UHGV virus genome: UHGV-1601690
DNA from: a virus
Strand: one strand, 5' to 3'
Length of the DNA stretch: 24,689 nucleotides
Shown one piece after another: positions 695-24,689 of the stretch. The notes under the pieces are model-generated. The model worked only from the letters and a program-made list of their open reading frames with translations, was not told the origin of the DNA and made no database searches. Positions within the stretch are counted from its first letter, which is position 1; the number at the start of each line of letters is the position of its first letter. Both the position numbers and the translations under genes were made by a program.

Positions 695-3600
695 TTATGC
701 GTATTGTTGGATGACGGCCAGAACGTCCGCCACGTTGTGTTTTGTCTCGATAATCCACCAGTTGCCCGGGAAATCGCTGTTCTTCGCCTTCGCTGGCAGC
801 CAGCGAGCGCCGAATTTCGCCTTGATTGCGTCTTTCGCACGGAAAAGAACGCCTTTCATGCCTGAGGCTTCCTGAAGCCCAAATACCTCGCCAGCGGCGA
901 ATTTTGGTGCGTACATCATCTTCAGGTCGGCGGTGGATACGCGATAATTCAGACCAAGAGACTGAGCTATGCTGGTGGCATCACCCTGTATTGATGATAA
1001 CTCTTCTTGTTTCTCGTTTCTGGCGGCAATTTCTTCCTCCGTGATGTTGCCAAGGGCCAGGTTTATCCGATCAGCGTCGGCCTGTTTCTCTTCATCGGTG
1101 CGCCCGGCAAGAACCGTGTTAATTCTCTGCAATATCTCCACATGATTCTTGCGCATGCTGAGCAATTCCGGCGTAACCTCGTTAAGATCCACCAGCCCAA
1201 GGATGGCAAGGTCGGAAAACATTGATACCAGGTTGTAGGTCATGCGATAGCTGAGTTGGCCATAGGCTGATGGCAACTGCACCGCATCCATTTGATAGGC
1301 ATCCATAAATTTAGAGCCGTCGTTTACGACATCCGCAATTGCAGGTGTGATTTTCCCTGTGGTGGCGGCCTCCCTGATTGCTGTTACCCACGATTGAGTC
1401 AGTGCGGCGACTGCATGATTCAGATTGGCTTCCCGTTCTGCTGCGATGCGCGCGCTTGCTGCGTCCATTGCCTGCTTGATCTCGGCTTTATTGCTGTAAA
1501 TGCCAATGGTGCCAAACTGTGCTGTGGTGATCTCATAATCTGACGCCCGGAACTCATGGGTACCGAAAATGGCATTGGTGACCTCAAGTTCAGAATCCCC
1601 GTTACGAGTAGCCCCCTGGCTTGTTTTCTCCGGCATTTTTGCGATCGCATCCGCTATTTTCTCCTGAATTGCTTCAGGGGATAGCGTATCTCCGTATGAC
1701 GCGATTACATCGCCATAATTGGAGCCAAACAATTCAACCAGGAATGTTTCTGCCGAACGGATCTGGCGGTTATTCCCTTCCGACATCATACCAAGCACCC
1801 ATTTTGCAATTGACGACTTCAGCGCGCCGTCACGGCGATCCGGGTAAACCGCATGCTTCAGTGGGTCCGTATAGGTACCAACAAAATCAATGCTATAGCC
1901 TGACTCTGTAGTCTGAACGCCGTATGAGTCAGTGATTTTGATCATGCCGCGCTGCTGGAAACGGTAGAAATCGTCACAGGAAATGATGTCGTTAATCCCG
2001 GCGATGGAGACGCCACCACTGATTTTCTGCATAACAGCATCTTCATCGGGAGTTACATCCACCTGTTTATCCAGCGTCTTCACATCCCAGTTACCCGATT
2101 TGGTGCCTTTGAAGGTAAAGATGATCTCCACATCTGCGCGCTGGCTGTCGAAGTCCAGCGACTTAATGCGAACGATATCACCAGCACAATCATAGTATTG
2201 GCCTACACGCCATGAGCGATCGCCGATAACAAGGAACTCACTCGCATGGTTAACCAGGTCAGGATCAACATCCAGAATGCCTTTATTTATTGCATCCTCC
2301 ACCAGCGGGCGCAGGCGTTTGATATCCGTCGCGGCCTTCTGAGTACGGTTCAATAATTTCTCATAGCGGGAGATGGCTTGAGTGATATTAGCCTTGCGCT
2401 GAATGGCGCTTTTCAACGACGCGCGATACTGTGCTAACAACGTACGGTCTGTGTGATGGACGCTACCCCAGCGGGCCTTCCAGTCTGCATTATCAGCTGC
2501 TTTGGCCATTACCGCCTGTTTGAATTTAGCTACCTCGGCGGTGGTCTTTTCAAGTTCCGCTTTACTTCGCTCTAATTCAGCGGTAAGAGCCGCAACATCC
2601 TCGCCAGCTGCATGTTGCGCCTTGATGTAGTTCTGAAGGTCGATAGCGGCCTGTTCTTTCTGGCGGGCGCGTTGCACGGCTTTCGCCTTATCCATTTGAA
2701 CCTGCATCATTGCCAGACGTTCGCCATCATCCTTAGCGGTATACATCTGCATTTCGATCATATCGTTGGCGTCGGCGTTCTCCATTTCTGACTTATCTGA
2801 ACGGAGGATATCGGAGATCCAGCCTGCTTTACGCTTCAGCGTCTTCAGTCGGTATTCATCGAAAGAACCCTTGCCGCAGTAGTAGTGAACGCGAACGCTT
2901 GCACGGTTGGAGCCAACTCGGGCACCGCGACCGTTTCGTTGCGCAATACTGGCTGGAGTCCATGGCAACGTCAGATGATGGATGTCAGTCGTTCCTCGAT
3001 GCAGGTTGATTCCCACCTCTGCCTTTTTGTTGCAGATGATGATCGGAGTCCGGCCCTCCTGGAAGTCGGCTGCAATCTTTTCCAGACCGCCCAACGACAT
3101 TTCATTTTGCTGCGCGATATAGGCGTCATACAGAGCCATTTGCTCGTTGTATTTCGCTATCTGTGCATCTGTTGGTTCATCCGGTAACTCTTTCGGCGGT
3201 TTAACCGCTTTCAGTTTCTTACCGGTTTTACCTGCCTCGGCAACCGTCTGAGCATTCAGTATCCCCACCTTTGAAGGTTCAAGGTTAAGAGCATTGCAGA
3301 TAATGCGCTTGAGCTTCTGGTGCTGCGTTTTTTCATCGGTGAAGATGATTTGCTTACCTTCCGGGAAAAACTCCTTCAGCGTGGCAATCAGCTTCGCGTA
3401 TTTGGGCGTAACGGGGTGAGTTACGGTCTGTTCGTCAATGCCAAACCTGGCCAGGCGCTTATTCACTTCCTGCTCGAACGCTTCCGGAACCTGCAACTGA
3501 ATAAACTCGCCCTTATCTATCAGGGAGTATTGCGATTGCTGCGTGATTGAATCATCACTGTCGTCGTCTTCGCTGGTGGCTTGTTTAGGCAAACTGTCCG

Positions 3601-7529: not shown

Positions 7530-9260
<1,731 letters not shown>

Positions 9261-10528
9261 ACGGCAAACATTCCCAATTCACAGAGTCCGACCTAAACCA
9301 CATGAAGCGGCTTAGGAATTACAGACTCTCCAAGGGCTAACACTGCCAGCCCGGCAGCTTTTATATTACGGGCCGCGTTAATATCACGATCATGCTCTGC
9401 GCCACATTCCGGGCAGTGCCATTTACGAATATTAAGAGGCATTTTTTGCATGGTGAAGCCGCAACTGCTGCAACGTTTGGAAGAAGGGAAATACTGGTCG
9501 ATAGCGACAATGCTACGTCCACCCCATTCTCCTTTGTACTGGAGTTGGCGTACAAGTTCGCTCCAGCCTGTGTCAGCTATTGCTTTAGACAGCTTCGGGT
9601 TACGGATCATGTTTTTCACTTTAAGGGATTCAACGCAAACAACTTGGTTTTCGTTAATCAGTTTGCGGGACAACTTATGCAGGTTATCCATCCGACAATC
9701 GACTATTCTCGCGTGGAGGCGGGCAACCTTTAAACGTGCTTTGGCGCGGTTCTTTGAGCCTTTTTGTTTCTTGCTCAATCTGCGCTGTAACACTGCTAAT
9801 CGCTTCGCGTATTTAGCGTTGTGTCGAGGATTGCCAGTTTTAAAACCGGTATCGGTGACGAACAAATCTTTTAAACCAATATCAATGCCGACCGTGGAAA
9901 CGGTGATCGGCAGTGATACAGGCTCAAACTCGCAGAGACAGGATACAAAATATCGTCCGGCAGCATCCCTGGTGATAGTGACAGTGGATGGAGCAGACGG
10001 CAACGGACGGCTCCAGCGAACATCTAACGGCTCTTTGCCATGTACAGCTTGCCGTCACGGTATTTAAATGCGCTGGCAGTTAGTTCTGCGGCCTGTTTAT
10101 GCCGCTTGCTCTTAAAAACTGGGTATGCAGCACGCCCGGCGAAAAAGTTAGCAAAAGCCGTTTGTTGGTGGCGCAGAGACTGCTGGAGGGGGACGCAGGA
10201 AACGTCATTCAGCCAGGCGAATTCTGGTTCTTTTTTCAGTGCCGTTAATTTGGCGCTGGCTTGTGCATAGCCGACCCTCTCATGGCGTGCGTAGTACGCA
10301 TCGGTGCGCCAGCGAAGGAGGCTGTTATAGACAAAACGCACACACCCAAAAGTCCGGGCTAATAGCTCGGTTTGTTCGGGAGTTGGATAGAATCGATATT
10401 TATAGGCACGCTTCATGTTCTATATAATACATTGAAACTAATGAGTATATAAATGAATACACGGACGAAAATGTTATCAAAGCCAATATACCAACAGACA
10501 TTAGGTAAGGTAGCTGGAGGGCAATATA
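9261..10528 (-). mobile_element. tnpB-only IS200/IS605-family insertion between prt and pro (ends not determined; coordinates are the surrounding intergenic limits)
   Basis: No Y1 tnpA-sized ORF on either side. Only 32 nt separate the convergent prt and tnpB stops, so the right end must abut or overlap the prt 3' end. Confidence 0.5.
9293..10416 (-). pseudogene. tnpB: tnpB (IS200/IS605-family OrfB, RNA-guided nuclease family), split by a frameshift
   Basis: N-terminal fragment 10024-10416 (MKRAYKYRFYPTPEQTELL...) and C-terminal fragment 9293-10003 (RuvC-like region and CxxC...CxxC zinc finger, KRCSSCG...HCPECG) lie in different frames. The C-terminal frame is open upstream and reads PLDVRWSRPLPSAPSTVT, continuous with the N-terminal fragment if one base is restored near 10027-10033. 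Confidence 0.85.
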
Positions 10529-11548
10529 ATGACTGATGTTTTGAAAACGGTCACTGACCGCTTTTGTCTCTATAGCAATGCTCGAAAAGGTCGCCAGAAC
10601 GGGCGACAGTATGTATTAAGCGCGGTTAAGACCATGCTTGAAAGCAAGGAAACTCAGGAAGGTTTACGCCTTGGAGAGCTTTTCGGCTATTACGGTCACG
10701 GTCGCCGACAGCTGACCGGCAAACTGGAAGTACCAGAAACCAGCGTAATCATGGTGGAAGGTCGCCCGGTCATAATCGACAATGTTCCAGCGTGCCGAAC
10801 AGTGGCTATATCTGTTGACGACAACGGCATCGTTACCCATACACAGGAAATTCTTAATACAGAGCCGGGGAAAATCGTCGCCGCGATGATCGAAAGCCGT
10901 GCTGGTGGCTGGAGCTGGGCCACTGGCGGGCGCGAGTCCGGGAAAATCGCTGTAACCACCAGCTTCCATGGTGTGGATTATGTGACAACGCCGAACTATA
11001 TAAGTCTGGATCATCCTGCCAGCGCCGGAATGTTTGAAAGCGCGGATTCTAAATCTTTACTGGCAGAGTCCCTGGCGGCGCATGGGTACTCCGACGAGTC
11101 AGTGCAGGCCGTTATATCCCATTACGGCAAAATGGCTGAACTGGAAATGATGGTGGAGGCGACAGAGCGTACGGCAGAACTGGAGACCGCACTACTCGAA
11201 AGCCAGGGCCGCCACCTCGAAGCAATGGCCAAGATCGCAGATGCTGAAGCGCGAATTGCTTTGCTGGAGGAAACAGCGGGTATCCGCGACGATGTGCTGG
11301 CAGCAATGCAAGACGAACTGGATAACCTCCCGATCTTCGTCTCCGCCGCCCAAAAAGACGCATTCCGCCTCAAAGAACCTGGTGATGCAAAAATCGTTGC
11401 CACACTTTTCGAATCTCTGATCAAAGTTGGCGCGCGCAACTTGCCTGTCACTAAGAAAATTAAAGAGGTTCCGCAAGCGGCTAACGTCCAGGCACCGCGT
11501 GAGACAAGCATCATCACGTTTAATAATTCAATCAATCCGTTCAAATAA
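10529..11548 (+). CDS. pro: Putative prohead protease/scaffold (P1 Pro position)
   Basis: 339-aa ORF, ATG preceded by GGAGGG. C-terminal third is coiled-coil-like (AELEMMVEATERTAELETALLES...). Assignment by synteny. Confidence 0.55.
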   Translation: MTDVLKTVTDRFCLYSNARKGRQNGRQYVLSAVKTMLESKETQEGLRLGELFGYYGHGRRQLTGKLEVPETSVIMVEGRPVIIDNVPACRTVAISVDDNGIVTHTQEILNTEPGKIVAAMIESRAGGWSWATGGRESGKIAVTTSFHGVDYVTTPNYISLDHPASAGMFESADSKSLLAESLAAHGYSDESVQAVISHYGKMAELEMMVEATERTAELETALLESQGRHLEAMAKIADAEARIALLEETAGIRDDVLAAMQDELDNLPIFVSAAQKDAFRLKEPGDAKIVATLFESLIKVGARNLPVTKKIKEVPQAANVQAPRETSIITFNNSINPFK

Positions 11549-11561
11549 CCACCAAAAATAA

Positions 11562-11587
11562 CCCCGGCGGCTGCCGGGGTTCTCGTT
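11562..11587. terminator. Bidirectional rho-independent terminator between pro and the lyz-side genes
   Basis: Stem CCCCGGC / loop GGCT / stem GCCGGGG (11562-11579), followed by TTCTCGTT on the plus strand and by TTATTTTTGG on the minus strand. Confidence 0.6.
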
Positions 11588-11595
11588 AACTATTA

Positions 11596-11847
11596 TCACC
11601 TTCGTCTGCGTGCCATATATTTGCGCACCGCGCGGCGTGGACAATCTGAAGCGGTTTCTTTCTGCTGCATCAATCTCGCGGCCATGCTCAAAAATGTCAG
11701 GCACAGCCGAAGCCCAGCATACAATAGCGGTTCCAGTGGCCACGTTTCATTAAGCACATATACCGCCATGAAAATCGAGTCGAAAACTATCGCTGCCAGC
11801 GATAACTTCATTGTCGAAAGTCTGCGGAGCTGCCGGAGTTTATTCAT
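11596..11847 (-). CDS. Small two-TMD membrane protein with a basic C-terminus, holin/pinholin-like, overlapping the lyz stop
   Basis: 83-aa ORF; ATG at 11845-11847 overlaps the lyz 3' end by 8 nt. Hydrophobic segments LSLAAIVFDSIFMAVYVL and PLLYAGLRLCLTFLSMAA, then RRAVRKYMARRRR. Confidence 0.4.
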   Translation of the reverse strand: MNKLRQLRRLSTMKLSLAAIVFDSIFMAVYVLNETWPLEPLLYAGLRLCLTFLSMAARLMQQKETASDCPRRAVRKYMARRRR

Positions 11848-12397
11848 TGACCAGTCCCGTCAGGCAAAGCAGGCGTTCTTTTTCACGGCGAATCTTTAAA
11901 CCTCGCAGGGGCACGCCGTTACTGTTCACAAAATCAGGGAGATGGTTACACATATTCACCCATTCCCCTTTCTGCGCCCACTTGTGGATGGACGTTTCGA
12001 CTCGCATGCCTCGCGCTTTGCTGTAGTAGGTCCGTAAGCTATTGCATCCCATATTGAATGCCGCGCTTGTCATTGCACTGAAGGCATTATCGGGCATGTC
12101 TTTGCCCCGGAAGTGCTGATTAATACAGCGTTCAGCGATCAGGATATTCTTTTCCCAATCAGCGGCGATTTGCTGGTCGGTTTTTCGCACACCCGGCGTT
12201 ACCCCGTGTGTATTACCGATCCCGTCAGTCCATACCCCCGCCGGGCACATGTATGGATCACGTCGGCAACCTTCAGCGTTTCCGATAAGCTCAAGCCCCG
12301 CCTGGTTGGTTCGCACATTGCCATTACCCATCACGATGGTAATCATCACCGCGATAGCGCAAATTGCACCGCCTCCTGCGGCTGTTTTTCCCTTCAT
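11840..12397 (-). CDS. lyz: SAR (signal-arrest-release) endolysin, T4-lysozyme-like muramidase
   Basis: N-terminus MKGKTAAGGGAICAIAVMITIVMGNG is a Gly/Ala-rich SAR domain and matches my recollection of P1 Lyz. Catalytic region ELIGNAEGCRRDPYMCPAGVWTDGIGNTHG. Internal ATG at 12395-12397 gives 185 aa; the longer 218-aa track ORF is an upstream extension. Confidence 0.9.
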   Translation of the reverse strand: MKGKTAAGGGAICAIAVMITIVMGNGNVRTNQAGLELIGNAEGCRRDPYMCPAGVWTDGIGNTHGVTPGVRKTDQQIAADWEKNILIAERCINQHFRGKDMPDNAFSAMTSAAFNMGCNSLRTYYSKARGMRVETSIHKWAQKGEWVNMCNHLPDFVNSNGVPLRGLKIRREKERLLCLTGLVNE

Positions 12398-12530
12398 AAA
12401 GACCTCATAAGCGAATTTTTTACGCTCCAGGACAAACACCCATTCACAGCCATTACCGACTGACTCGATCCCTTTAGAAGGCACAGGATAATGCAAATCA
12501 CTTGTTAGCTACGTTTCAAAGATATACATT

Positions 12531-12547
12531 ATTGCTCTAATTAATTT
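12531..12547 (+). promoter_or_regulatory. Candidate P1 C1-repressor operator 20 nt upstream of ssb
   Basis: ATTGCTCTAATTAATTT matches the remembered C1 operator consensus ATTGCTCTAATAAATTT at 16 of 17 positions. It overlaps the expected ssb promoter. Confidence 0.45.
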
Positions 12548-12566
12548 ATTTTATTAGGTAAGATAA

Positions 12567-13055
12567 GTGGCACAACGCGGTGTAAACAAAGTCATCCTGA
12601 TTGGTACCCTGGGGCAAGACCCGGAGATCAGGTATATACCAAATGGCGGAGCGGTCGGAAGACTCAGCATCGCAACGAATGAATCATGGCGCGACAAGCA
12701 AACGGGCCAACAGAAAGAGCAAACAGAATGGCATAAAGTCGTTTTGTTCGGAAAACTTGCTGAAATTGCGAGTGAGTATTTACGAAAAGGTTCTCAGGTC
12801 TACATCGAAGGGAAACTTAAAACCCGTAAGTGGACAGATGAGGCCGGTGTAGAACGCTACACGACGGAAATTATCGTCAGCCAGGGCGGCACCATGCAAA
12901 TGATCGGCGCTCGCCGTGACGATTCACAGTCCACAAATGGCTGGGGGCAATCAAACCAACCTCAAAACCACCAGCAATACAGTGGCGGCGGTAAACCTCA
13001 GAGCAACGCCAATAACGAACCTCCAATGGACTTTGAAGACGATATTCCATTTTGA
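12567..13055 (+). CDS. ssb: Single-stranded DNA-binding protein
   Basis: 162 aa, GTG start. OB-fold N-terminus [20 protein letters not shown]...[14 protein letters not shown], Gly/Gln-rich linker, acidic tail ending DDIPF as in E. coli SSB. Confidence 0.93.
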
Positions 13056-13106
13056 GAGGGCTGAAAGTTGCTCGATTACTTAAAAATAACTTTACCTAAT
13101 TGGTGT

Positions 13107-13132
13107 AAAAAAATGGGCGCAACAAAGCGCCC
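13107..13132 (-). terminator. Rho-independent terminator downstream of the porin gene
   Basis: Stem GGGCGC / loop AACAAA / stem GCGCCC (13115-13132); on the minus strand the stem is followed by a run of seven T (13107-13113). Confidence 0.6.
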
Positions 13133-13188
13133 CAACAATAGAGTTTCAAATTAATAAAAGGGTAATAAATAACATGAAGTTAAATTGA

Positions 13189-13303
13189 GAAGAGGCAATT
13201 TTATTGCCTCTTCAAAGGTGGCATGAGGGTGCCACCTATATGCGGGCAGTGACATCACTCCCTTCCCGCATATTCTTACCTACCAAAATTAGAATTGGTA
13301 GGT
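13189..13303. repeat. Cluster of four perfect inverted repeats in the porin 3' region
   Basis: GAAGAGGCAAT-TTT-ATTGCCTCTTC (13189-13213); GGTGGCA...TGCCACC (13217-13236); ATATGCGGG...CCCGCATAT (13238-13273); ACCTACCAA...TTGGTAGGT (13278-13303, spanning the porin stop). Confidence 0.6.
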
Positions 13304-14436
13304 CATACCAACAGCAACGATGTTGTCGGTTGCAACCTCAGATGCTTTGGTAAATTCACTTTCATCAATCAGGTTGATCTTGTAGTCAACGAAAGCGGAC
13401 ATATTTTTGTTGAAGTAATAAGTCGCGCCTACGTCGATGTATTCAACTAGATCCTGGTTACCGAACGCACCAATATTTTCACCGCGAGAGTGCAGGTAAG
13501 CGATGGACGGACGCAGGCCGAAATCAAACTGGTATTGAGCAACAGCTTCAAAGTTTTTCGCTTTGTTTGCGATAAAGTCATCACCGAAGACTGTCATATT
13601 CTGAGTTTCAGAATAAGTTGCAGCCAGGTAAATGTTGTTTGCGTCATATTTCAGACCAGTAGCCCATACTTCAGCTGTTTTACCAGAAGCATTCAGAGAG
13701 CTTGCATTAGCATAGGATACCTGTCCATCAGTACGGTCAGATTTTGCATAAGTTGCGCCAATGCCAAATCCTTCATAATCATAAGTAGCTGACAGACCGA
13801 AGCCATCACCATTAGATTCAACTACGTCGCGGCCTTTCCAGTTGTTCACTTTTGCAGCACTATCATTTTTACCCTGATACTGCAAAGCAAAGTTCAGACC
13901 ATCAACCAAGCCGAAGAAATCATTGTTACGATAGGTCGCGACGCCAGTAGCACGCTGGGTCATAAATACATCAGTCTGAGTCCAGGTATCTCCACCAAAC
14001 TCCGGCAGCACGTCAGTCCAAGCGCCAACATCATACGCTACACCGTAGTTGCGACCATAGTCGAGCGAACCATAATCGCCAAAGCGAAGCCCTGCAAACG
14101 CAAGACGAGTTTTGTCTTTATCAGAACCTTCAGTTTCAGTACGGTTACCTTTAAATTCGTACTCCCACTGACCAAAACCGGTTAACTGGTCATTAATCTG
14201 AGTTTCACCTTTGAAACCAAGACGCATGTAGGTCTTGTCGCCATCTTTAAACCCATACGAGCATAAGTTTTATCCCCGTCATCACTAGCTGAAGAAGAGA
14301 AGTAATGCTCTGCATTAACTTTGCCGTACAGATCCAGTTTGTTACCGTCTTTGTTATAGATTTCTGCCGCTTGTGCAGACATTGCCATCAGGACTGATGC
14401 TGCAACCGCAGAAAGTGCCACTGTGATTTTTTTCAT
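13289..14436 (-). pseudogene. OmpC/OmpF/NmpC-family general porin (phage-borne cargo), interrupted by a frameshift
   Basis: Signal peptide plus mature N-terminus ([40 protein letters not shown]...) in ORF 14182-14436; remainder of the barrel to the C-terminal ...VGMTYQF in ORF 13289-14227, in a different frame. Confidence 0.85.
14210..14280. repeat. Diverged 35-nt direct repeat at the porin frameshift
   Basis: Minus-strand copy A gacggggataaaacttatgctcgtatgggtttaaag ([12 protein letters not shown]) is followed directly by copy B gatggcgacaagacctacatgcgtcttggtttcaaa ([12 protein letters not shown]). The copies differ mainly at third codon positions, and the 35-nt offset shifts the frame. Confidence 0.7.
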
Positions 14437-14547
14437 TTTTTTGCCCTTTAGATTGAACTTTTCAGTAGAAAAGAGGTCACTGCGGACAAATGTTTATCTT
14501 TTTTGGATTCGTGTTTCAAGTTTTGCAAATAAAAATCAAGGTATTTT

Positions 14548-14563
14548 TGTGATCAAAATCACA
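14548..14563. promoter_or_regulatory. Perfect CRP (cAMP receptor protein) consensus site upstream of the porin gene
   Basis: TGTGA-TCAAAA-TCACA, both half-sites perfect with a 6-bp spacer, about 112-127 nt upstream of the porin ATG inside a roughly 740-bp AT-rich non-coding block (14437-15175). Confidence 0.45.
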
Positions 14564-15175
14564 AATAATAACCTTGAAAACCCAATGGACTATTAGAAAA
14601 ATCTCAATTCACAGAATAAAAATTGACAAAATAGAACAAAACACAATCAACAATAAGCACAAAAGACAAACAATTAAATTAGCACAAAAATAATAACTGC
14701 AAAAATAGATAGCCTGTTAATTAATAGGGTTTTAATGGATGTGGATTTGAAATCTACTTAAAAAGTAGAGTCAAATTAATTACTGTCGATTGGGTATTAA
14801 ACTGAATCTATATTGTGAGAGTTAAAGACGATGTGTTTTAGTTATACATGTTATTCCCTAAAATGGAGTAGTCTCATCGAATTCTGATTAATAACGAGCT
14901 AAGCCAATTCATTTTAGTATGTGTATATCTTTACCCTCTGAATATGCAATGACGAAGAGATATTAAACAATATGTAGCTTCAGGATTGACTCTGGAAGAA
15001 TTAAAAGATCGGCTAAAGTGTTCAATATGTGGTGAGCGAAACGCAAAAATTAAAATTTTTTGATCTAACATATTAGGCAATAGCTTGCTTCCATAACCTA
15101 AAGCAAGCCACTACGCGTTTACTTTAAGTACACAATTAACATATCAGAACAGATTATTTGTGCACTATCAGGGAG

Positions 15176-15481
15176 TTAATATACGATCTGGTCTACATGA
15201 TCCCCAAAATCATCGTCGTCCTCATCGCCACCCTCTACTGCTGGCCAATCGACAAACCAGCCAGCGTAAAGATGCAGCGTTCGGAGAACATCACTTGCGG
15301 GAGCATCAAGGGTGTTAACGAATCCCATATAGCTATTGGGATTTGCCCCAGCTATGGCTTCAGCGATCATGTCCTCGGTAATGTCACCGGAGATAATGCT
15401 TAAACGCCCGGAAACTTCTTCATTATCATCAAATTCGATAATGGCATCTCCGCCTAATGGCGCTGCGATTTTAATCTGCAT
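15176..15481 (-). CDS. Very acidic 101-aa protein, last gene of the darA operon
   Basis: Start overlaps the ddrB 3' end by 11 nt. About 22 Asp/Glu against 3 Lys/Arg; C-terminus EGGDEDDDDFGDHVDQIVY. Confidence 0.6.
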   Translation of the reverse strand: MQIKIAAPLGGDAIIEFDDNEEVSGRLSIISGDITEDMIAEAIAGANPNSYMGFVNTLDAPASDVLRTLHLYAGWFVDWPAVEGGDEDDDDFGDHVDQIVY

Positions 15482-18458
15482 TATTTAGCTCCTTTGCCAC
15501 ACCTAATAACAGTTCCAGCAATCCGTCACCATTCATCAGTGATGCGGCAGCGGCCTCTTTGTCATGATACAACTGAAGAGCCATAGAGAATACTTCCGTT
15601 GCTGATGTTTTTGAAATAGTCGGTGCTTTCTGCCGAATTTTCCCGGAGTTACTCACTGAGGCTGGCGGGTATACCTTCGCCATATAAATATTACTCAATC
15701 GAGATCTGAAGCACCATTCAGGCTTGCCACGCCCACCGATATTGACGAAAGATGGCTTATCCCCTTCAACATTGGCCTTCAGGAATGATCGGGCTTTCTC
15801 TAACAAACCAGGGTTACTGTACTCAAGATGATGACCCAGCTCGTGCCACAGTGCACTTGCATTTTCATCGTTCAAATTGACAGCAACAACACCATTAAGA
15901 TTTGCATATGCCCTTCCCTGGTGGTGAACCACCTTTGATAAGGTCGAAATTTTACCGCCGGTCAGGCGATAAATATCAGCAAGTTCCTTGCGCAGGTCTA
16001 TCCCACCATTCTGTCCAGCGCGGGCTTCTTCCACTTCTTCCGTGATAAAAGAGTCGGCCCACTCAAGAGCTTTTTCTTCAGATACGGATGAGTTTGCGAT
16101 CGCACTGTTCATGGCAGATAACACTTTCTCGTGGACCGAACCCATACTTCGCTGATTCATTTGCCAGCGTGTCTGCGGGTTATATGAGAATCGCTTAAGT
16201 AGTTGGTCAAGCTGCTCAAGTTCTTCTTCACTGACATACCTTTTAGCCTCACCAATAATGCCAGGGAGAATATTGCCGTTAGGATTAAACGCTCGCGAAA
16301 GGAAGAGTTTCAGCGCCCCCATGCCCTCCGATGCTTCAATATCACCAATAACCCGGTTAACAATGGCCGCACTCTTCGGATTAGCATCCGCCAACGCTCT
16401 GGCTACAATTTGCAGGGACGATACGACCTCACGCTGCATATCCGTCCTGATCTCATCAATAAACTCTGGCGTTATGCCGTGCTCTTTAAGGATATCCCTG
16501 CCTTCCGCCGTTACCCCATCGATATCACCGACATGTTTATTAACCCGACTTTGCAATGCCTTAAATGCCTTCAGAATTCCACGGGCATCATCCGCTTTAC
16601 TAACGGCCTTCCTGAATGCTGGCAAGAAGTCTGAGTTAACCTCATTTTGTTGATCGGCCCACTGAATGGAGGCTTCTTTCATCTCGTCCAGAGTCAGATC
16701 ACCCAACGCAGTATGGTCTGTGAATATGAGCGACAACCTCTGAACCATTTCTGCCAATGGTGATGCCGAATGCGCCGCGCTAAGGAATGCTTTCACCCTG
16801 GTTGGGCGAATGGAAAACCAGTCAATAGCTGGTGGCATATCTCCGTTTTTTATCGCCTGCGCTATCTCGTCAAAGCCATCGCGCCCAAGGGAGGATGCGT
16901 GATTTAACAAGCCGCGAAGTAACGAATTGCTGATACCGAATAATCGGCACCATTTTTTCACGTCGGCAACAGGCATTCGAACAAAATGCGCAAGCACTTG
17001 TACAAGCTGTTCATCTTGGGGATCTGTACGGGAAAGCAGCCTGATCAGATGAATAATGTCTTTGATGCCGGATGCCCGATGTAATAGCAAACTGGTATAT
17101 GGAGCAACACCGTTGTAACTACCGCCGGAAACGGACTCGAAAAGACCGCCGGATATCCCTTGCATGCCTTCGTTTTCCAGTTCCTGAGACACCTGGCGAA
17201 GGATATCCTGTAACGACACATCACCACCGCCAAACATATCCCCCAGCGCCTGGCCCTGGTGCTGTAACTCATCATTGATACGTTGAGCCATCAATTTAAA
17301 AGCGGTGGCCATACGCTTCGCGCTACGGTTATTCGCGACGATGAACAACGCGAGAGCTTTCACTTCCGGGGCTGTTTCGCTGAACATATCCCCCTGAGCA
17401 ATAACATCGGTAATATGTTGGCCTGACTCCTTCGATTGCCTTACCAGGTCTACCGCATCTTTCAATGCCGCCAGCGCCTTTTTATCGAGGCTATCCGCTG
17501 TCTCAATGCCATCAACAATAGTTGTCACAGCCTGCTTGTGCGCTTCTCCTGATAAAGCCTGCATCTGGACAAAATCATTGGCTGCCGCATTAAGCGCCGT
17601 CAGAACATTACGCATATCCGGATCAGCTTCTTCTGCAACCATCCTTACCAGGCGCGCATCCTTATATGCCTTGGCAAAGATCGCGTTTTGTATACGGTCT
17701 ACAAGTTGCCGTGTTGGTCGCCCATCTTCCGTTACAAGGCCAGCAGCCTGTGTGGCACCAACTTGCGTCATGAATCCGCGAATAAACGCGTCATTACTGC
17801 GGCTAAGCAGATCTCCGCTTTCTGATGGGTTAAACAGCGCCATCATCGCCGGAGTTATGCTGTCAGCATCAACAAAAGCCTTTTCACTGGCTGCCATTTC
17901 CTGAAGATCAGAAATATTTGAGTCCTTGGCAAACTGAACGCGGTCAACCTTAGTTAACCGGCGGCGCACCAGTACCGGAGCCGCCATTGATTCAACCTTT
18001 TCAGGTCGTATGCCGAATTCGGTCGCATGATCAATCAGGTACTCACGATACCGATCCGCATTGCCGTCCTGATAGGCTTTGATGATCCCCATGGTCCGTC
18101 CATTACCTGACTCAACGGCATTGTCCTCACCAATTATCGGCGCGCCATGGCTGGATAAACCGGAATCGGTAAGCTGGGCAGGACGCAAATCCTTGGATAT
18201 CTGGTTGACCTGAAGAAGACTGGATGCGCGGGTCCGGTCGCGCGGCTGAAGTTCCTGGGGATAGTCAGGGTTAATTTTCCCGTCCAGAGTATTGGATACC
18301 AAAAGAGCTGAGGCATCGACGATATCAAACGCTGTTTTTACCTCGTCTCCCTTCGCTGTCACCACATACGAAACCCGCCCGTAATTGGGCAGGTTTTTTA
18401 GCAGCTCGATCAGCGTTTCTATGCTGGTGGCCATTACCACCTGATCGCTTAAGCTCAT
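15471..18458 (-). CDS. ddrB: DdrB-like large Dar accessory protein
   Basis: 995-aa ORF downstream of ddrA in the darA operon; size and position match remembered P1 DdrB. Contains an HELGHH (HExxH) motif at 15828-15845. Confidence 0.75.
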   Translation of the reverse strand: MSLSDQVVMATSIETLIELLKNLPNYGRVSYVVTAKGDEVKTAFDIVDASALLVSNTLDGKINPDYPQELQPRDRTRASSLLQVNQISKDLRPAQLTDSGLSSHGAPIIGEDNAVESGNGRTMGIIKAYQDGNADRYREYLIDHATEFGIRPEKVESMAAPVLVRRRLTKVDRVQFAKDSNISDLQEMAASEKAFVDADSITPAMMALFNPSESGDLLSRSNDAFIRGFMTQVGATQAAGLVTEDGRPTRQLVDRIQNAIFAKAYKDARLVRMVAEEADPDMRNVLTALNAAANDFVQMQALSGEAHKQAVTTIVDGIETADSLDKKALAALKDAVDLVRQSKESGQHITDVIAQGDMFSETAPEVKALALFIVANNRSAKRMATAFKLMAQRINDELQHQGQALGDMFGGGDVSLQDILRQVSQELENEGMQGISGGLFESVSGGSYNGVAPYTSLLLHRASGIKDIIHLIRLLSRTDPQDEQLVQVLAHFVRMPVADVKKWCRLFGISNSLLRGLLNHASSLGRDGFDEIAQAIKNGDMPPAIDWFSIRPTRVKAFLSAAHSASPLAEMVQRLSLIFTDHTALGDLTLDEMKEASIQWADQQNEVNSDFLPAFRKAVSKADDARGILKAFKALQSRVNKHVGDIDGVTAEGRDILKEHGITPEFIDEIRTDMQREVVSSLQIVARALADANPKSAAIVNRVIGDIEASEGMGALKLFLSRAFNPNGNILPGIIGEAKRYVSEEELEQLDQLLKRFSYNPQTRWQMNQRSMGSVHEKVLSAMNSAIANSSVSEEKALEWADSFITEEVEEARAGQNGGIDLRKELADIYRLTGGKISTLSKVVHHQGRAYANLNGVVAVNLNDENASALWHELGHHLEYSNPGLLEKARSFLKANVEGDKPSFVNIGGRGKPEWCFRSRLSNIYMAKVYPPASVSNSGKIRQKAPTISKTSATEVFSMALQLYHDKEAAAASLMNGDGLLELLLGVAKELNNAD

Positions 18459-18470
18459 CCCTGTTACGCC

Positions 18471-18836
18471 TTATTCTGCCTCTTTAATGTTGGCGGCTAT
18501 CCATGCCGCCGTGTGCTGTTTAACCTGGTCCAGGTCGATGTATGTGCCAACATATTGACTCAAGTCCTGTAACGTACCGATAAATGCATCAGTGCTCTGA
18601 TCGACGAATTTATCAGCCAGGAAATCAGCAACCAGTTTTGGCACACCATCATGTACCGAAGGTTGTTTTTCCTCGCCACTACCGCTGCCGGACGCGCCGT
18701 ACCCCATCTGTTGCATGATCTGGTCAATTTCATCGCTGATATCCAGCAACTCCATGCCACTCGCGGTCGCCGCTTTGGACATCAGAGCATCCAACTTATC
18801 GCTGAGATCCATTAACTCAATAGCTGATAGTGTCAT
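18471..18836 (-). CDS. ddrA: DdrA-like small acidic Dar accessory protein
   Basis: 121-aa ORF; start overlaps the darA stop by 4 nt. Assignment by operon position. Confidence 0.7.
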   Translation of the reverse strand: MTLSAIELMDLSDKLDALMSKAATASGMELLDISDEIDQIMQQMGYGASGSGSGEEKQPSVHDGVPKLVADFLADKFVDQSTDAFIGTLQDLSQYVGTYIDLDQVKQHTAAWIAANIKEAE

Positions 18837-20752
18837 GCCGCTACCCCCGCTTTCTGGATTGCTACCAACAGATCAGCCAGGTGGCGAGCTGCGCCGTTAA
18901 CCAGCTCTTCGTTTTCCTCAAAACGTTCGGCAGCCTGAAGGGATGCAATCGCTTCCCGGACATTGCCCCGGGCGTTACGGATCTCCGCCATGTCAGTGCT
19001 TTGCATATCCATCACGTTATTGAGATATTCAATGGCTTTATTAGCCTCTGCATCTGCTTCGCTAACCGTTTCATCAGGCTGTGCCGGGGCCGGTTCTGGC
19101 TGAGTAATCTCACCGACTTCGGCCTGCAATGCATTGATCATGCTCTGCAACATTTTCTCGGTGCCAGCGCCACCCGGAAACGCAATATTGGGGAAAGTTT
19201 TTTGAAACTGAGTTTTCAGCATTACGCGGAACTCGTCTGGTGAGCTGGTGGCCAGCTCCAGAGCTTTTTGTGCATATTTGCCAAACGGACCATTAGTAAG
19301 TGTCTTCGCCAGGAAGTCGAAAGAATCCTCGCGAGGCAATAACTTCAGGTCGTACTCACTCATTTGCTGATCAGAAAGCGGGGTATCATAAGTAGCAATG
19401 CCGTAGCGTGCATATTCATAATACGGATCACCTTCATCAGGGCGCGGCAGAATTGCTTTGTTACCTTCAGGTATTGCGCCAGGGGCCGCCGGACGCATTT
19501 GCAGAGCATATCGATATGCACCTACAGAGACTTCTGGTTCAGGCGAAGAGCTACCGGTATCCTCCGCTGGTTCAGGTTCGACGTTTTCCGGTTTATGTTC
19601 TTCTGGTTGGACCAGATATTCCGATACATTACCCGCTTTATAGGCTTTAAACAGCTTGCCGATCGCATCTGCCATGTCCACACCCTGTATGGATTTAGCC
19701 TTGATCATGTATACGCTGCCATCCGGGTCGGTTAACTGGATATACCCTTCGCCATCCCCAATGAATTGCTTCATTGATGCACCATTACTGAGCGTCGCTT
19801 CCCCGTCCATATGCATACGATTTTTGATACTGGCAAGGCGATCCGTCAGCGCGCGAGAGTGCCCACCAGTCATCCCCGCTGGAGCAATGGTATCGCGCCC
19901 ACCAGTGCGATTGAGCTGATCAATCTCCGTCTGCAAACGCTCATTCTCTTCATAAAGAGAATCCGCTTCCGATGCAACAGCGTTAATTTTCTGCTCCAGA
20001 TCTGCCTTCTGCCCTTCTACCGCTGCCACCTGATCCGCGAGGTCGCTCATGGCATCCTCTTTCTGGTCACTGTCAGCCTGTAGTTGGGTTATTTCATCAA
20101 CAAGGGCTTTTTTCTTCTTCTGCGCACGCTGGAATTTTGCCGAGTTTTTCTCTGCAAGGTTGGCAAGTTTCATGGTGACCTGCGCCAGCGTCATATCACG
20201 TCCACTCATCGGAGCAACGGTGTGAGTAACGTCTTTTTTATTCAGTAAGAACTGGAAAGCAACCAGCGTATCGCTATTGGTGATCCGGTTTTCCGCTGTC
20301 GGGCTATGAAACAGAATGCTGATAGTCTGACCATCACTGAGCGGAATAATGGCTGGCAAGACCGGCAGCCCGTTAACGTTACGTGCCCGGCCAATTTCAG
20401 CGCCGCCGATCGCGCGCGCGCCGCTCTGGGCCACATCCCCCGTTTTATCACTCCCCGCAGAGATTCCGGTACCATTCAGCTTCTGGTTCAATGCCCGGAC
20501 AAATGCCTGCATGGTCCGGTGTAACTGCAAACGAGTAGAACTAATCGCCTCCAGTAAATCCGTAGCACACCAGTGGATCGGCGTGTCATAGAAGAACGTA
20601 GCCTCGATTTCCTCCAGGGTGTTGGATTCCGTCATCAGATAGCGGTCCTCACCGGCCATTAATGCGCGATATTCATCATCAGTCACTGGCGGGGGAAGCA
20701 CGTCAAGCCCAGGCTTGAGCGTCACCCCTTTATTGATATTGAACTGTTCCAT
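18833..20752 (-). CDS. darA: DarA-like capsid-internal anti-restriction protein
   Basis: 639-aa ORF, ATG preceded by AGGAAA. Shares a segment with the upstream hdf product (LANLAEKNSAKFQ vs AARKNSAKFQ). Size matches remembered P1 DarA. Confidence 0.8.
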   Translation of the reverse strand: MEQFNINKGVTLKPGLDVLPPPVTDDEYRALMAGEDRYLMTESNTLEEIEATFFYDTPIHWCATDLLEAISSTRLQLHRTMQAFVRALNQKLNGTGISAGSDKTGDVAQSGARAIGGAEIGRARNVNGLPVLPAIIPLSDGQTISILFHSPTAENRITNSDTLVAFQFLLNKKDVTHTVAPMSGRDMTLAQVTMKLANLAEKNSAKFQRAQKKKKALVDEITQLQADSDQKEDAMSDLADQVAAVEGQKADLEQKINAVASEADSLYEENERLQTEIDQLNRTGGRDTIAPAGMTGGHSRALTDRLASIKNRMHMDGEATLSNGASMKQFIGDGEGYIQLTDPDGSVYMIKAKSIQGVDMADAIGKLFKAYKAGNVSEYLVQPEEHKPENVEPEPAEDTGSSSPEPEVSVGAYRYALQMRPAAPGAIPEGNKAILPRPDEGDPYYEYARYGIATYDTPLSDQQMSEYDLKLLPREDSFDFLAKTLTNGPFGKYAQKALELATSSPDEFRVMLKTQFQKTFPNIAFPGGAGTEKMLQSMINALQAEVGEITQPEPAPAQPDETVSEADAEANKAIEYLNNVMDMQSTDMAEIRNARGNVREAIASLQAAERFEENEELVNGAARHLADLLVAIQKAGVAA

Positions 20753-20753
20753 G

Positions 20754-21365
20754 TTAATTTCCTGCTTTCAGTTGCTTAAGACGACGTTTGAGTTCGCCAT
20801 TCCGTGCCTTTTCGTTATTGAGTCGGCCCGTCTCCTTATCCAGCTTCGCCCGCAAATCAGTGATCTGCTGTTGATTGAAAGACACCGAATTCTGCGCGGA
20901 CTTATAAGCGGCAACCACCTGAGCATTCCGCTGTTTTGCTTCTTGCAGGCGCTGAAAGTTGGATTTAACTGCCGGTTTCTTGTCTACCGGATTGGCAACA
21001 CGCTTCGCTTTGGCGATCAGTGATTTCTGGAATTTTGCGGAGTTTTTGCGGGCCGCCTGTCCCATGGCGGTACCAAGCGTCTTGATATCCGGCGACTGAG
21101 CGTTAGGAATAGCTTTTCCATTCAGTTTCACAGACGATATATCGCCAGTATCGTTTACCTGTATGGCAAGAATTTGTCCGTCGTTAAGAACCAGCTTTGC
21201 GGTTTTAACTTTAACGCCATCTTTCGTTGTTGCGCGGTTGCTGGAGTCAACCTCAATTACCGTAACCCCGGTTTTATTGATCGCCGCGATAAGGGATTTC
21301 AGCCCCTTTTCATTAACCTGGTCAAAATCGACCGTTGCATACTTATTTTTCGTCATCTGACACAT
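20754..21365 (-). CDS. hdf: Hdf-like protein (homologue of a DarA fragment)
   Basis: 203-aa ORF with local similarity to DarA (NSAKFQ region) and a coiled-coil-like C-terminus. The second ATG at 21356, preceded by AGGA, is the more likely start. Confidence 0.7.
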   Translation of the reverse strand: MCQMTKNKYATVDFDQVNEKGLKSLIAAINKTGVTVIEVDSSNRATTKDGVKVKTAKLVLNDGQILAIQVNDTGDISSVKLNGKAIPNAQSPDIKTLGTAMGQAARKNSAKFQKSLIAKAKRVANPVDKKPAVKSNFQRLQEAKQRNAQVVAAYKSAQNSVSFNQQQITDLRAKLDKETGRLNNEKARNGELKRRLKQLKAGN

Positions 21366-21786
21366 CCTGTGCGAGATTTATTACGTAACTTCTGCGGATT
21401 TGCTGAGTAACAGGGAAAATCCGATACAACGGGTTAATGAACGAGTCACCATGCGTAACCATGACGTTGAAATGCCACAGCCGTTCTCCTTTACCCATAT
21501 ATTCAGTGGGTATGTACAACCATTCACTGTTTTCGCCCTGTTCAGCCGACGTCAGACAACGTTGTTCGCCTTCAATCACTGTCGTTGGCTTCTGAACATC
21601 GCGGATCCAATATCTGACCGTTGCGCCGCGCAAAAACGGGAATTTAGACCGGTATTTGAACGGCACCCGGATGAAGCCCTGTTTAATTTCCACATCACCA
21701 AGTTCTAAATGCGTGATGTCCTTGCGTTTTAGCAAATAGCGATCGGCTAAGGCTAACGCAAGAACGCATACACCCCAGCCAATCAT
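21343..21786 (-). CDS. lydB: LydB-like holin antagonist
   Basis: 147-aa ORF overlapping the lydA stop by 4 nt. Assignment by position in the P1 lydA-lydB-darA operon. Confidence 0.65.
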   Translation of the reverse strand: MIGWGVCVLALALADRYLLKRKDITHLELGDVEIKQGFIRVPFKYRSKFPFLRGATVRYWIRDVQKPTTVIEGEQRCLTSAEQGENSEWLYIPTEYMGKGERLWHFNVMVTHGDSFINPLYRIFPVTQQIRRSYVINLAQDVSDDEK

Positions 21787-22112
21787 TTCCCACCTCCCTT
21801 TTTCACCAAACTTGTAAGAACATTCAGAATGCTATCGATATTCACTCGTTTCATCCCTGAAATCACCTCATGACCGTTATTGCTGGCTATCGTTACCATT
21901 AAGTACGTAATTGATAACTCCCAGCCCTCGTGTTGCCCCAATAGGTACGCCACCGCGCCAGCTGTCACTGCAACAAAGATCTCCGTAACCAATCCCAACA
22001 AATTGCCAGACTGGCGACCATCTCGGACATCCATCAGGAACGTGCCTATCCCACCAATTACTGAAAGCAGGAGCGCAATAGCAACTGGAGCTAATTCCTG
22101 TGTGTCAAGCAC
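21783..22112 (-). CDS. lydA: LydA-like holin
   Basis: 109-aa ORF, GTG start preceded by GGAGGG. Two to three hydrophobic helices (LAPVAIALLLSVIGGIGTFLM; LLGLVTEIFVAVTAGAVAYLLG) and a basic C-terminus. Confidence 0.7.
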   Translation of the reverse strand: MLDTQELAPVAIALLLSVIGGIGTFLMDVRDGRQSGNLLGLVTEIFVAVTAGAVAYLLGQHEGWELSITYLMVTIASNNGHEVISGMKRVNIDSILNVLTSLVKKGGGK

Positions 22113-22181
22113 AAGTTCCCTCCTACGTTGTCAGGAGGTAATGGTATGCAAAGTAACTTCTCAACCGGTCATGTTGCTTGA

Positions 22182-22213
22182 CATCCTCCACGTCCTTTAG
22201 AGCGTGGAGGATG
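22182..22213. repeat. Perfect 11-bp-stem hairpin adjacent to the start of the intron-like region
   Basis: CATCCTCCACG - TCCTTTAGAG - CGTGGAGGATG; ends at 22213, and GTGCG begins at 22215. Confidence 0.75.
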
Positions 22214-22214
22214 T

Positions 22215-23060
22215 GTGCGCCCAGCATGGGCGCGATCTTGGAGGTGAAAGCCCTCCCGCGAGCTGACCACAGCGAGCGAAATGAAGTGCAACTGCGTGAG
22301 GGCGACCGGGCGTGGGGAGGAAGCACGGAATGAACCCGTGAGCCGATGAACGAGAATCGGATATGAGGCGCGATGGAGCAAGGCGAGCAGGCACATCACT
22401 GCGAAGCTTTCGTGGTCAAGTCGAAGTCGCGCAGATCCGACGGTTGTGCGGGGAAGGATCGCGTTCTTACCTGGGGAGTTCTCGCCTCATGCCTGAAAGG
22501 GCAACGTCGTAAGACGGAGCGAGAAGTCAGCAGAGGCCGTTGTAGTCAGGACTCCGACGAAGGGCCGAACGAGAAGGAAAGCCAGAAGATATGACTCTTG
22601 ACAGGACATTGCGTCAGAAGCCGGGGAAGCCCGGTACGGACCCGCATGCCGGGTGGTGTGGCAGGGGCGCAGCCCTTGTGCTCCCCCCTATGCCGATCAA
22701 GCAGAACATTGTGCTGGGCCTCTGACGCAGCTCCTTGATGGTCTTGGCATCGTGCTTAAGTGGATTGGTGTCGTCCCTGATAGGATCATGGAGGCAGAAT
22801 GAAACTCAAAAATCCGGGATAGCACGCAAAACAGGCTGCACAAAAAGCGCAGGTTGCGTAGGAGTGAAATCCCGCTCCCAAAAAATGGTGCAGAAGTTGC
22901 GGCAGTGGTCATCCGACGCACTGGAAAATAACAAACCCGCCGTGACCAGAATCGGAGGCCTGAGGGAGTGACCGAAAAACCGGACAACCCAGGCAGCAAA
23001 TACCCGCTGGATGAGGCATGGTTCCGGCAGATAATACCGAAAACCGCCAGACACACTGGA
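22215..23060 (+). ncRNA. Candidate 5' fragment of a group II intron (domains I-III and start of IV), truncated
   Basis: Starts GTGCGCCCAGCATGGGCGCG (compare the remembered Ll.LtrB 5' end GUGCGCCCAGAUAGGG). About 850 nt that look GC-rich by eye, with stops in all frames and many short helices; ends abruptly where AT-rich DNA begins near 23060. No reverse-transcriptase ORF or domain V present. Confidence 0.4.
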
Positions 23061-23117
23061 TAATCAGTAGAAATAATCCATTAAAGTTATTATAATAATT
23101 GGTCACATTATTATATT

Positions 23118-23681
23118 ATGCTGAACAATAGAAATATGACTATTAATGAACTTAAAGACTGTATTCACTATGAAGTAATTGGTAGCGAGCGTCCTTTCTC
23201 TTGGCGAAAAGCAATTGTTCGCGCAATAAAACATAGAAGAGTTCGTTATTTATTTTGGTGGCGCATATCAAAATATCTTTTTGATAAAGGCGGATACAGG
23301 CGAAAGGTTGCAGGGAAAATAGAACGCTTCATTCTTGACAAATACAATGTAACCGTTCCCTTAACGGTAAATATAGGGAAAGGGTTTGACATATCTTATC
23401 TCAATGGCGTTGTTATCGCTCACAAAGTCACAATCGGTGAAAATTGTTCAATTAAGCCCGGAGTAACTATTGGACTTCGCGGGGAATTTAATGACATGGA
23501 TATTGTTATAGGAGATAATGTGACCATTGGTTGTAATGCCACCATTCTTGGTGGCAAAGTGCGTATAGGAAACAATGTCACAATAGGTGCTCATGCATTG
23601 GTATTGCATGATATTCCTGATGATTCAACATTCATCACTAAATTTCAGTCTGAAGTTATCTGCTCGTCCTCCCGCACATAA
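23118..23681 (+). CDS. Hexapeptide-repeat (left-handed beta-helix) acetyltransferase, probable polysaccharide O-acetyltransferase; AT-rich cargo
   Basis: 187-aa ORF with consecutive hexapeptide repeats ([24 protein letters not shown]...[35 protein letters not shown]). AT-rich by eye, preceded by an AT-rich promoter-like stretch containing TATAAT. Start may be the second ATG at 23136. The 3' end overlaps the tfa 3' end convergently. Confidence 0.8.
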
Positions 23682-24262
23682 CCCTGATTCATCAGCTCTG
23701 GCCATACGATATCCGGAGCTGTACTGGTATCAATTCGACTCACTAATACTCTGTATTTTCTCCAGGAGTCCAGTTGTGAATTTTCCTCGTTTGTTGCTAT
23801 TTCAAGATTAACTGCGTCCTGCAGAATTGCGATGTTATCTGTTGCCTCCTGGATCAACCTTGCCTTTTTCTCTTCCGCTTCCCGTATCCGAAACAGTTTT
23901 TCTGCTTCCTCATCCTTCACCCAGGATACGCCGTCCCACTTCTGATACTCCCCTGCTGGCGACAACCAGGTGACATTCTCTGGTAGCGGTCCGGGTTCAG
24001 AAATAAACAACGCGTCCCCCGATGCCACCTCATAGACCGTTTTACCACGATGGTCTTCAACAATATTCCACGATTCATTTTCACTGTTGAAAACTGCCAC
24101 AAAGCCAGTAGGAATTTCCGGTGGGGCGATATCTGTAGAATTAGCTGGCAGCCCTGTATGAGGTGGAATATATGCGTCATCTTCACCAATAAACTCATTA
24201 GTTCCGGCCAGCAGGTTATAAATTTTTACTGTACGTGATTGTTCACTCATTCTGAATGCCAT
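23645..24262 (-). CDS. Tail fibre assembly chaperone (Tfa / P1 U-like)
   Basis: 205-aa ORF with a Tfa-type C-terminal region (DIVWPEL...). Its ATG overlaps the tail-fibre stop (TAATG). The last few codons run into the AT-rich cassette. Confidence 0.85.
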
Positions 24263-24689
24263 TATGCAAGCCTCACAATATAATTAAATGCGATGTTTTT
24301 AACGGTGTTTTCCGCGTTACCAGCAGCATTAACGGTGATGGTATGTCCATGTGAACCAATCGCAACAGAGTGCGTATGAGCGCCAATACCAACTGTATGT
24401 GCATGCGCCCCTGCACTTGCAGCAGTGCCTGATACTGAGTGGGTGTGTGCACCAGAAGAAGGCACTGTTCCATTCCCCACGACCGTGCCACTTGATGAAC
24501 CATCAAGCCAGTCGAAATTCATACCTCCACTGTTTGGTCTCCTTAATGGAACGGTATGAGTATGTGCGCCAGCACTATTTGCAGTACCAGATACATTGTG
24601 GGTATGTGCACCTGTGTTATTCGTTGGTTTAGTACCGTAATCAAACGACGATGTGGTTTTCGTCCCCAAATCCGTACTGGATGCGCTGG
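24262..24689 (-). CDS. Tail fibre protein, C-terminal receptor-binding part (5' end beyond the window)
   Basis: Frame is open to the window edge. Repeated GAHTH(S/T)V(S/P) motifs ([21 protein letters not shown]...[21 protein letters not shown]) are typical of Mu S / P1 S / lambdoid side tail-fibre C-termini. Confidence 0.8.

Follow-up and report, generated by a model that had tools for sequence, protein, structure and literature searches.

The stretch of DNA analysed here (hereafter the window; 24,689 nucleotides of the virus genome UHGV-1601690) very probably comes from a lineage of P1-like (IncY) phage-plasmids that has lost the Cin/cix inversion switch of the C-segment, by which phage P1 can change between two tail-fibre tips. 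An earlier note on this DNA had proposed that the switch is replaced by foreign DNA, that the phage may have a fixed tail-fibre specificity, and that it traded host-range switching for conversion cargo. The first two proposals agree with the evidence set out below, and the third does not. The features on which the account is based are listed in Table 1.

Table 1. Features of the window around the lost switch (positions count from the first nucleotide of the window)
Feature	Position	Strand	Basis and remarks
lydA holin gene	21783..22112	-	109-aa ORF, 98-99% identical to P1 lydA; holin in P1 and in the annotation of relatives
LPdar late promoter (-10 and -22 boxes)	22141..22159	-	Mapped from the P1 annotation (P1 locus 9642-9660, offset 12499); sequence identical to P1, upstream of lydA
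Left breakpoint	22180	.	P1 homology up to 22179 = P1 nt 31252, 3' end of lydC; blastn and aligned sequences
Perfect 12-bp-stem palindrome ACATCCTCCACG-N10-CGTGGAGGATGT	22181..22214	.	Repeat search
Group II intron, protein gene deleted, 483 nt, both ends intact	22215..22697	+	GUGCG start, GAU end; Rfam
Decayed myovirus tape-measure gene fragment (pseudogene)	22698..23050	+	75% DNA identity to prophage tape-measure genes
Acetyltransferase + tfa + fibre-tip cassette	23048..24689	.	Common to non-P1 phage-plasmids
Sigma-70-like promoter candidate for the acetyltransferase	23068..23096	+	TAGAAA-17-TATAAT, 10/12 positions; consensus match only
Hexapeptide (left-handed beta-helix) acetyltransferase, 181 aa, 35-40% GC	23136..23681	+	Pfam, PHROG
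Tail fibre assembly protein gene (tfa), sole copy	23645..24262	-	Caudo_TAP PF02413 E=3e-39, 134.7 bits; phrog_105 E=1e-92
C-terminal tip of the single tail-fibre gene, running off the window	24262..24689	-	Pfam Phage_fiber repeats

The backbone of the window is that of P1. Positions 14955-22179 are 98% identical to P1 by blastn and collinear with it, which places the element among the Punavirus phage-plasmids, and the minus-strand genes ddrB, ddrA, darA, hdf, lydB and lydA in the right-hand 10 kb keep the P1 arrangement. Relatives of the window carry IncY repA/parAB as well as the P1 tail, baseplate and head genes. In P1 (NC_005856), lydA is followed by the LPdar promoter, lydC, cin with its enhancer, cixL, Sv', U', U, Sv, cixR, Sc and R; the earlier note was right to place cin and the inverted fibre and tfa copies in this interval, which also contains lydC. 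In the window, lydA is the last backbone gene ahead of the breakpoint, the match to P1 ends at 22179, and there is no lydC, cin, cixL, Sv' or U', which confirms that other DNA has taken the place of the switch. When the P1-like phage vB_EcoM-Ro157c2YLVW (NC_050153) is used as the reference, homology with the window stops at 22173.

A switch of the Cin/Gin/Hin type requires a serine invertase, two inverted cix sites, and duplicated, inverted fibre C-termini with tfa, and the window holds none of the three. Searches by tblastn with P1 Cin, LydC and U' returned no homologue from the window, the sole match of the LydC query being its paralogue lydA, at 31%. The absence of a recombinase-sized reading frame, reported in the earlier note, was borne out, as the largest frames at 22113-23117 reach at most 119 aa and lack any Pfam domain, compared with the 186 aa of Cin. 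These small frames also go without annotation in RefSeq relatives, and were rejected as genes; the whole interval is empty in the RefSeq annotation of more than 30 relatives. Neither long inverted repeats nor a second fibre copy were found in the window, and the second inverted tfa that had been reported missing is indeed missing from it. No cix-like site was detected in the window at up to four mismatches, including the surroundings of the junctions at 22180, 23050 and 23660. Base composition further marks the interval. GC content steps up from 0.49 to 0.62 near 22200, drops to 0.35 near 23050, and climbs again beyond about 23700. The sharp junctions noticed earlier near 22213, 23060 and 23660 are thus real, and could be refined to 22214/22215 (exactly the 5' end of the intron), to 23048 (the cassette boundary), and to 23645-23681, where the 3' ends of the acetyltransferase and tfa genes overlap.

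As the window ends inside the fibre gene, statements about the DNA past its edge rest on relatives that are 97.8-100% identical to it in the overlap. These are the locus L094, identical to the window at 100% over 21700-24689, and the complete 97.6-kb plasmid pHYEC7-mcr1 (NZ_KX518745), identical at 97.8% over 10528-24689. The fibre gene of both contains an exact 20/20 cixR at the Sc/Sv junction, at window-equivalent positions of about 26911-26930, some 2.2 kb past the window. The 96% identity to P1 S extends beyond the cixR crossover for 143 nt and drops sharply thereafter, which puts the right-hand recombination junction just inside Sv. The orphan cixR in the fibre gene of these relatives argues for a past switch that has been lost, leaving a specificity that would now be fixed. 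A different history would be that the lineage never had the switch, with the fixed fibre being ancestral and P1 having gained cin and the C-segment later. Many P1-like plasmids do lack a P1-type cin, and among the 562 plasmids matching a P1 lydA-lydC-cin-cixL query, 143 cover at least 80% of it. Against this stand the exact cixR followed by P1 Sv-type sequence, a C-terminal U' relic retained beside lydA in Ro157c2YLVW, phage JL22 (ON018986) as an intact cin-bearing intermediate, and the replacement DNA itself, which is an obvious mosaic of relics. Since the cixR fossil, the U' relic and JL22 argue for loss of the switch and not for its ancestral absence, we regard this alternative as very unlikely.

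The right-hand part of the mosaic is a cassette with 94-95% identity to myovirus-type phage-plasmids of 47-49 kb (L013); this match starts at 23048 and extends about 205 nt beyond the end of the window. The cassette contains the AT-rich acetyltransferase gene that the earlier note had recognised correctly. The product belongs to the hexapeptide superfamily (Pfam Hexapep PF00132, E=4e-14, 51.9 bits against a cut-off of 27) and matches phrog_2154, a phage family without assigned function, over its full length (E=1.5e-77). The best NCBIfam matches of this protein all lie far below their cut-offs (EpsC 81 vs 150; CysE TIGR01172 72 vs 210.65; WcaB 62.5 vs 194.65), and the CysE (serine acetyltransferase) chains of the PDB align over the C-terminal domain alone, without the N-terminal SATase helical domain. 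Because of these scores, which fall short of the curated equivalog cut-offs, and of the restricted alignment, the name "serine acetyltransferase" was rejected as a naming artefact. The tfa gene, of the Tfa/U type, is convergent with the acetyltransferase gene, their 3' ends overlapping by 37 nt; it abuts the fibre gene at 24262, and is present as a single copy in both the window and pHYEC7-mcr1. Inside the tfa coding sequence, a minus-strand match to Rfam IS009 at 23721-23919 is below threshold (75.9 bits vs a gathering score of 117), and most likely arises because the gene is homologous to tfa genes of cryptic prophages, and not from a small RNA. The fibre tip in the window is 100% identical to amino acids 1199-1340 of the pHYEC7-mcr1 fibre. 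In the relatives, the fibre has 1339 aa, and its N-terminal part is P1 Sc with the 143 nt past cixR.

The position of the acetyltransferase bears on the claim that host-range switching was given up for a lysogenic-conversion gene in the place of the switch. The gene is AT-rich, is preceded by a promoter-like site, and sits where P1 has the inverted half of the C-segment, all of which would suit such a trade. However, in JL22 an acetyltransferase coexists with cin and Sv'-U'. Its acetyltransferase, 37% identical to that of the window, lies between two convergent tfa genes, in an interval that corresponds to the cin-invertible segment of P1. The gene is also tied to tfa in non-P1 phages without any switch. 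Among 77 informative IMG/VR loci that carry a phrog_2154 acetyltransferase, tfa lies at most about 100 nt downstream on the opposite strand in 61, in four divergent allele groups. The two genes are likewise convergent in Hafnia phage yong2 and Citrobacter phiNP, while in the P2-like ESSI2 phages the acetyltransferase is found beside the integrase instead. The acetyltransferase and tfa alleles were also observed to co-vary, for example 95% identity of the one with 98% of the other, and 90% with 81%. The linkage to tfa in switch-less phages, and the presence of both cin and the acetyltransferase in JL22, indicate that the gene arrives with the fibre/tfa module and was not exchanged for cin. The proposed trade, to which we give very little credence, is therefore not sustained.

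Under the preferred reading, namely loss of the switch with acquisition of a fibre/tfa module, the acetyltransferase would be a moron-like gene with its own candidate promoter. Glycan O-acetyltransferases are known from temperate phages; NeuO of the K1 prophage CUS-3 is a hexapeptide-repeat enzyme of this kind that serves lysogenic conversion. Like the acetyltransferase of the window, NeuO and Oac of phage Sf6 are each the product of a small gene that adjoins the receptor-binding module in a temperate phage. NeuO shares with it the hexapeptide repeats, whereas Oac belongs to a different, membrane-bound family. The match of the window protein to polysialic acid O-acetyltransferase is marginal (E=9e-4). 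By analogy with prophage-encoded glycan acetyltransferases (PMC13123978), it is most likely predicted to O-acetylate a surface glycan or polysaccharide in lysogens, a role put forward in the context of the AT-rich composition, the promoter-like site and the conserved synteny with tfa. A further reading can be advanced tentatively. Instead of a random moron, the phrog_2154 acetyltransferase may represent a conserved companion of the tfa/receptor-binding module, the two moving together between unrelated temperate phages. In lysogens, its target may be the glycan that the linked fibre tip recognises, and acetylation of this glycan would block superinfection by phages with the same tip. This reading draws on the close convergence with tfa in most of the IMG/VR loci and across their allele groups. 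It spans P1-like elements, 48-kb phage-plasmids, Hafnia phage yong2 and Citrobacter phiNP, and at least one cassette exchange included the fibre tip.

Between the left breakpoint and the cassette, the window contains a palindrome, an intron and a relic. The palindrome was considered as a transcription terminator and rejected, as no T run follows the stem-loop. A similar hairpin follows IS605-family tnpB genes in two other loci, L006 (the sister P1-like plasmid pMB17626_2) and L007 (an E. coli chromosome). In L007, a full-length intron lies directly after such a hairpin at the end of a tnpB element, which identifies the palindrome as the homing site. The intron of the window has group II domains D1-D4 (Rfam group-II-D1D4-3, RF02001, 96.9 bits vs a gathering score of 32; group-II-D1D4-1, RF01998, 41.6 vs 35), with a 5' end of the GUGYG type and a 3' end of the AY type. 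Its 5' part is 98% identical to L007 3529-3948, the first 420 nt of the full-length intron, and its 3' part 94% identical to L007 5293-5360, the last 68 nt, the two parts meeting at a 6-nt GCCCGG repeat. The full-length intron of L007 measures 1.83 kb and encodes an RT-maturase with RVT_1 and GIIM domains and no endonuclease domain. The window copy thus consists of the joined ends of such an intron, with about 1.35 kb deleted, including the RT-maturase gene, of which some 14 codons are left. In pMB17626_2, the uninterrupted site reads GGAGGATGT/CAAGCAG (the slash marks the point of interruption), from which a precise insertion follows.

The catalytic state of the intron can be judged from its fold. 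Domains 5 and 6 were located by folding, as Rfam RF00029 misses them in the full-length copy as well as in the window copy. The full-length intron shows a canonical D5 (a 10-bp lower helix, a 2-nt bulge and a 3-bp upper helix) and a D6 with a bulged A. In the window copy, the base of domain 5 is truncated and a G-to-A change creates a mismatch in the upper helix; since the deletion damaged domain 5, the intron is probably inert. Its features recall bacterial group II introns that home beside inverted repeats (class C behaviour; PMC1702495). It begins with GUGCG, ends with AU, matches the D1-D4 families and lies directly 3' of a stem-loop, and the RT-maturase of its full-length relative lacks an endonuclease domain. 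In contrast to those introns, the copy in the window is without its protein gene and without part of domain 5, and the stem-loop beside it does not represent a terminator. No name from the literature (E.c.I series) could be assigned to it. In L007, the element end at 3415-3528 places the full-length intron exactly at the 3' end of the IS605-family tnpB element, after the hairpin and GGATGT, and a sub-threshold RAGATH-18 match lies upstream of that intron. The same element end is present without an intron at L006 2180-2258, and this intron lineage seems to home into it.

The earlier mention of a GC-rich intron-like fragment in the interval was correct as far as a group II intron derivative is concerned, but the GC-rich stretch also holds a separate pseudogene fragment. 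By tblastn, positions 22698-23050 correspond to amino acids 713-840 of a 1336-aa tape-measure protein, in two frames and with in-frame stops. An origin of this relic in the 48-kb phage-plasmid that shares the cassette was ruled out, as no similarity was found.

It could also be supposed that the switch is still present, either just past the window edge or elsewhere on the replicon, all the more so because the window breaks off within the fibre gene. In the 7 kb past the edge in L094, the remainder of the fibre gene (4,020 nt in all) comes first, and the genes after it occupy the places that R, gene 16, bplA and sit have in P1. P1 Cin gave no tblastn match in the window, L003, L094 or the complete pHYEC7-mcr1, and neither LydC nor U' has a homologue in the complete plasmid by the same method. 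Serine invertases of any kind were also absent from the window, from these 7 kb of L094 and from the complete pHYEC7-mcr1; of the queries used in this search, Cin came from the P1 record and can be relied on, and Gin and Hin are approximate and supportive only. A second cix-like site, sought at up to four mismatches, was found in neither pHYEC7-mcr1 nor L094, so that the count is one site in each of these, none in the window and two in P1. Relatives also match the P1 lydA-cin query over lydA only. A switch located elsewhere is thereby largely refuted, and appears extremely improbable. With no invertase and one cix site, inversion is impossible in these relatives. One fibre gene, one tfa and a single orphan cixR are what they carry in place of the invertible segment, which supports the fixed tail-fibre specificity proposed earlier and makes a fixed host range the probable consequence. 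An assembly artefact or chimeric contig, for which nothing but the sharp composition steps would speak, has next to no probability, as the same junctions are shared, at 97-100% identity, by at least 35 complete plasmids that were sequenced independently and by IMG/VR contigs that come from several countries and hosts.

The most probable history of the loss of the switch is as follows. The DNA that starts at the 3' end of lydC and takes in cin, cixL, Sv', U', U and most of Sv was replaced by a mosaic made of an IS605-end-like palindrome, the tape-measure relic, and a mobile cassette with the acetyltransferase, the convergent tfa and a new fibre tip. The group II intron later homed into the palindrome, and then lost its RT gene through a 1.35-kb deletion between GCCCGG repeats, by which domain 5 was also damaged. 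The phage would now possess one fixed fibre, in which P1 Sc is fused to a non-P1 tip, and one chaperone.

The arrangement is widespread. The whole architecture, including the intron remnant, occurs in at least 35-37 PLSDB plasmids, 31 RefSeq E. coli genomes and several IMG/VR contigs, and in an evenly spaced sample of the 562 plasmids about one row in eight matches over lydA only, as the window does. The core finding is already known, as this is a common and published variant of P1-like phage-plasmids. The region of lydC, cin, Sv', U', U and S is listed with seven others as hypervariable in a set of 54 P1-like phage-plasmids (PMC9603915), and P1-like plasmids with an altered cin and no complete C-segment, in which host-range switching is presumably lost, have been described (PMC6906374). 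The main text of the mBio 2022 paper holds no data on vB_EcoM-613R2. What is mildly new is descriptive only, and concerns the remnant and the empty site of the intron, the tape-measure relic, the orphan cixR and the linkage of the acetyltransferase to tfa in a cassette.

Compared with known systems, the window is like the P1 C-segment with its Cin-cix switch (of the Gin/Hin/Pin/Min family) in backbone and position, with lydA on one side and R-S on the other, in the Sc part of the fibre, and, in its relatives, in the exact cixR. It differs in having no cin, cixL, Sv'/U' or lydC, and in its one fibre tip and one tfa, with which no inversion is possible. The plasmid pHYEC7-mcr1 and about 35 other IncY P1/P7-like plasmids share the order lydA, palindrome, intron, relic, acetyltransferase, tfa and fibre at 97-100% identity, and differ from the window only in cargo elsewhere (mcr-1, IS elements) and in lacking its extra tnpB insertion and its porin frameshift. 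JL22 and Ro157c2YLVW are also P1-like and also have a hexapeptide acetyltransferase convergent to a lambda-type tfa by the fibre gene, but their acetyltransferase is only 37% identical to that of the window, and they have neither the intron nor the tape-measure relic. In JL22, where cin and Sv'-U' are still present, U and part of S are replaced by a "serine acetyltransferase" and tfa, the role of the former being described as "still unknown" (PMC9603915). Ro157c2YLVW is also without cin (PMC9603915), and in contrast to the window retains the U' relic. This relic (L001 7543-7878; amino acids 77-178, 62.5% identity) directly adjoins lydA, which suggests that a JL22-like ancestor independently lost lydC-cin-Sv' by deletion.

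The current understanding of P1 biology is unchanged by these results, the value of which is practical and lies in annotation. P1-like phage-plasmids play an important part in carrying resistance genes such as mcr-1 and blaCTX-M, and it is the fibre module on which their host range depends; a single fixed tip without a switch in a common sublineage helps to predict which hosts can be reached. For annotation, "serine acetyltransferase" is unsupported, the unannotated 0.9 kb consists of an intron remnant and a tape-measure relic, and an orphan cixR is present in the relatives.

Several further observations concern the window and its relatives outside the lost switch. Relative to pHYEC7-mcr1, the window carries a 1.28-kb insertion at 9246-10527, between the portal and head-processing genes. 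This insertion holds an IS605-family tnpB in two reading frames, 10024-10416 (HTH) and 9293-10003 (OrfB_IS605 and TNB), which is probably frameshifted. The hairpin motif is absent from the insertion; it occurs once in the window, at 22181-22214, and the palindrome was therefore rejected as an end of the window's own tnpB element. In the intron-less pMB17626_2, a macro-domain protein gene (L006 7581-8483) is inserted between tfa and a different tail-fibre gene. A porin gene of the OmpC/NmpC type lies at 13289-14436 on the minus strand of the window, and its tblastn segments (amino acids 1-68 and 53-371) fall in different frames, which indicates a frameshift near 14240; in pHYEC7-mcr1, this porin is intact, at 370 aa.
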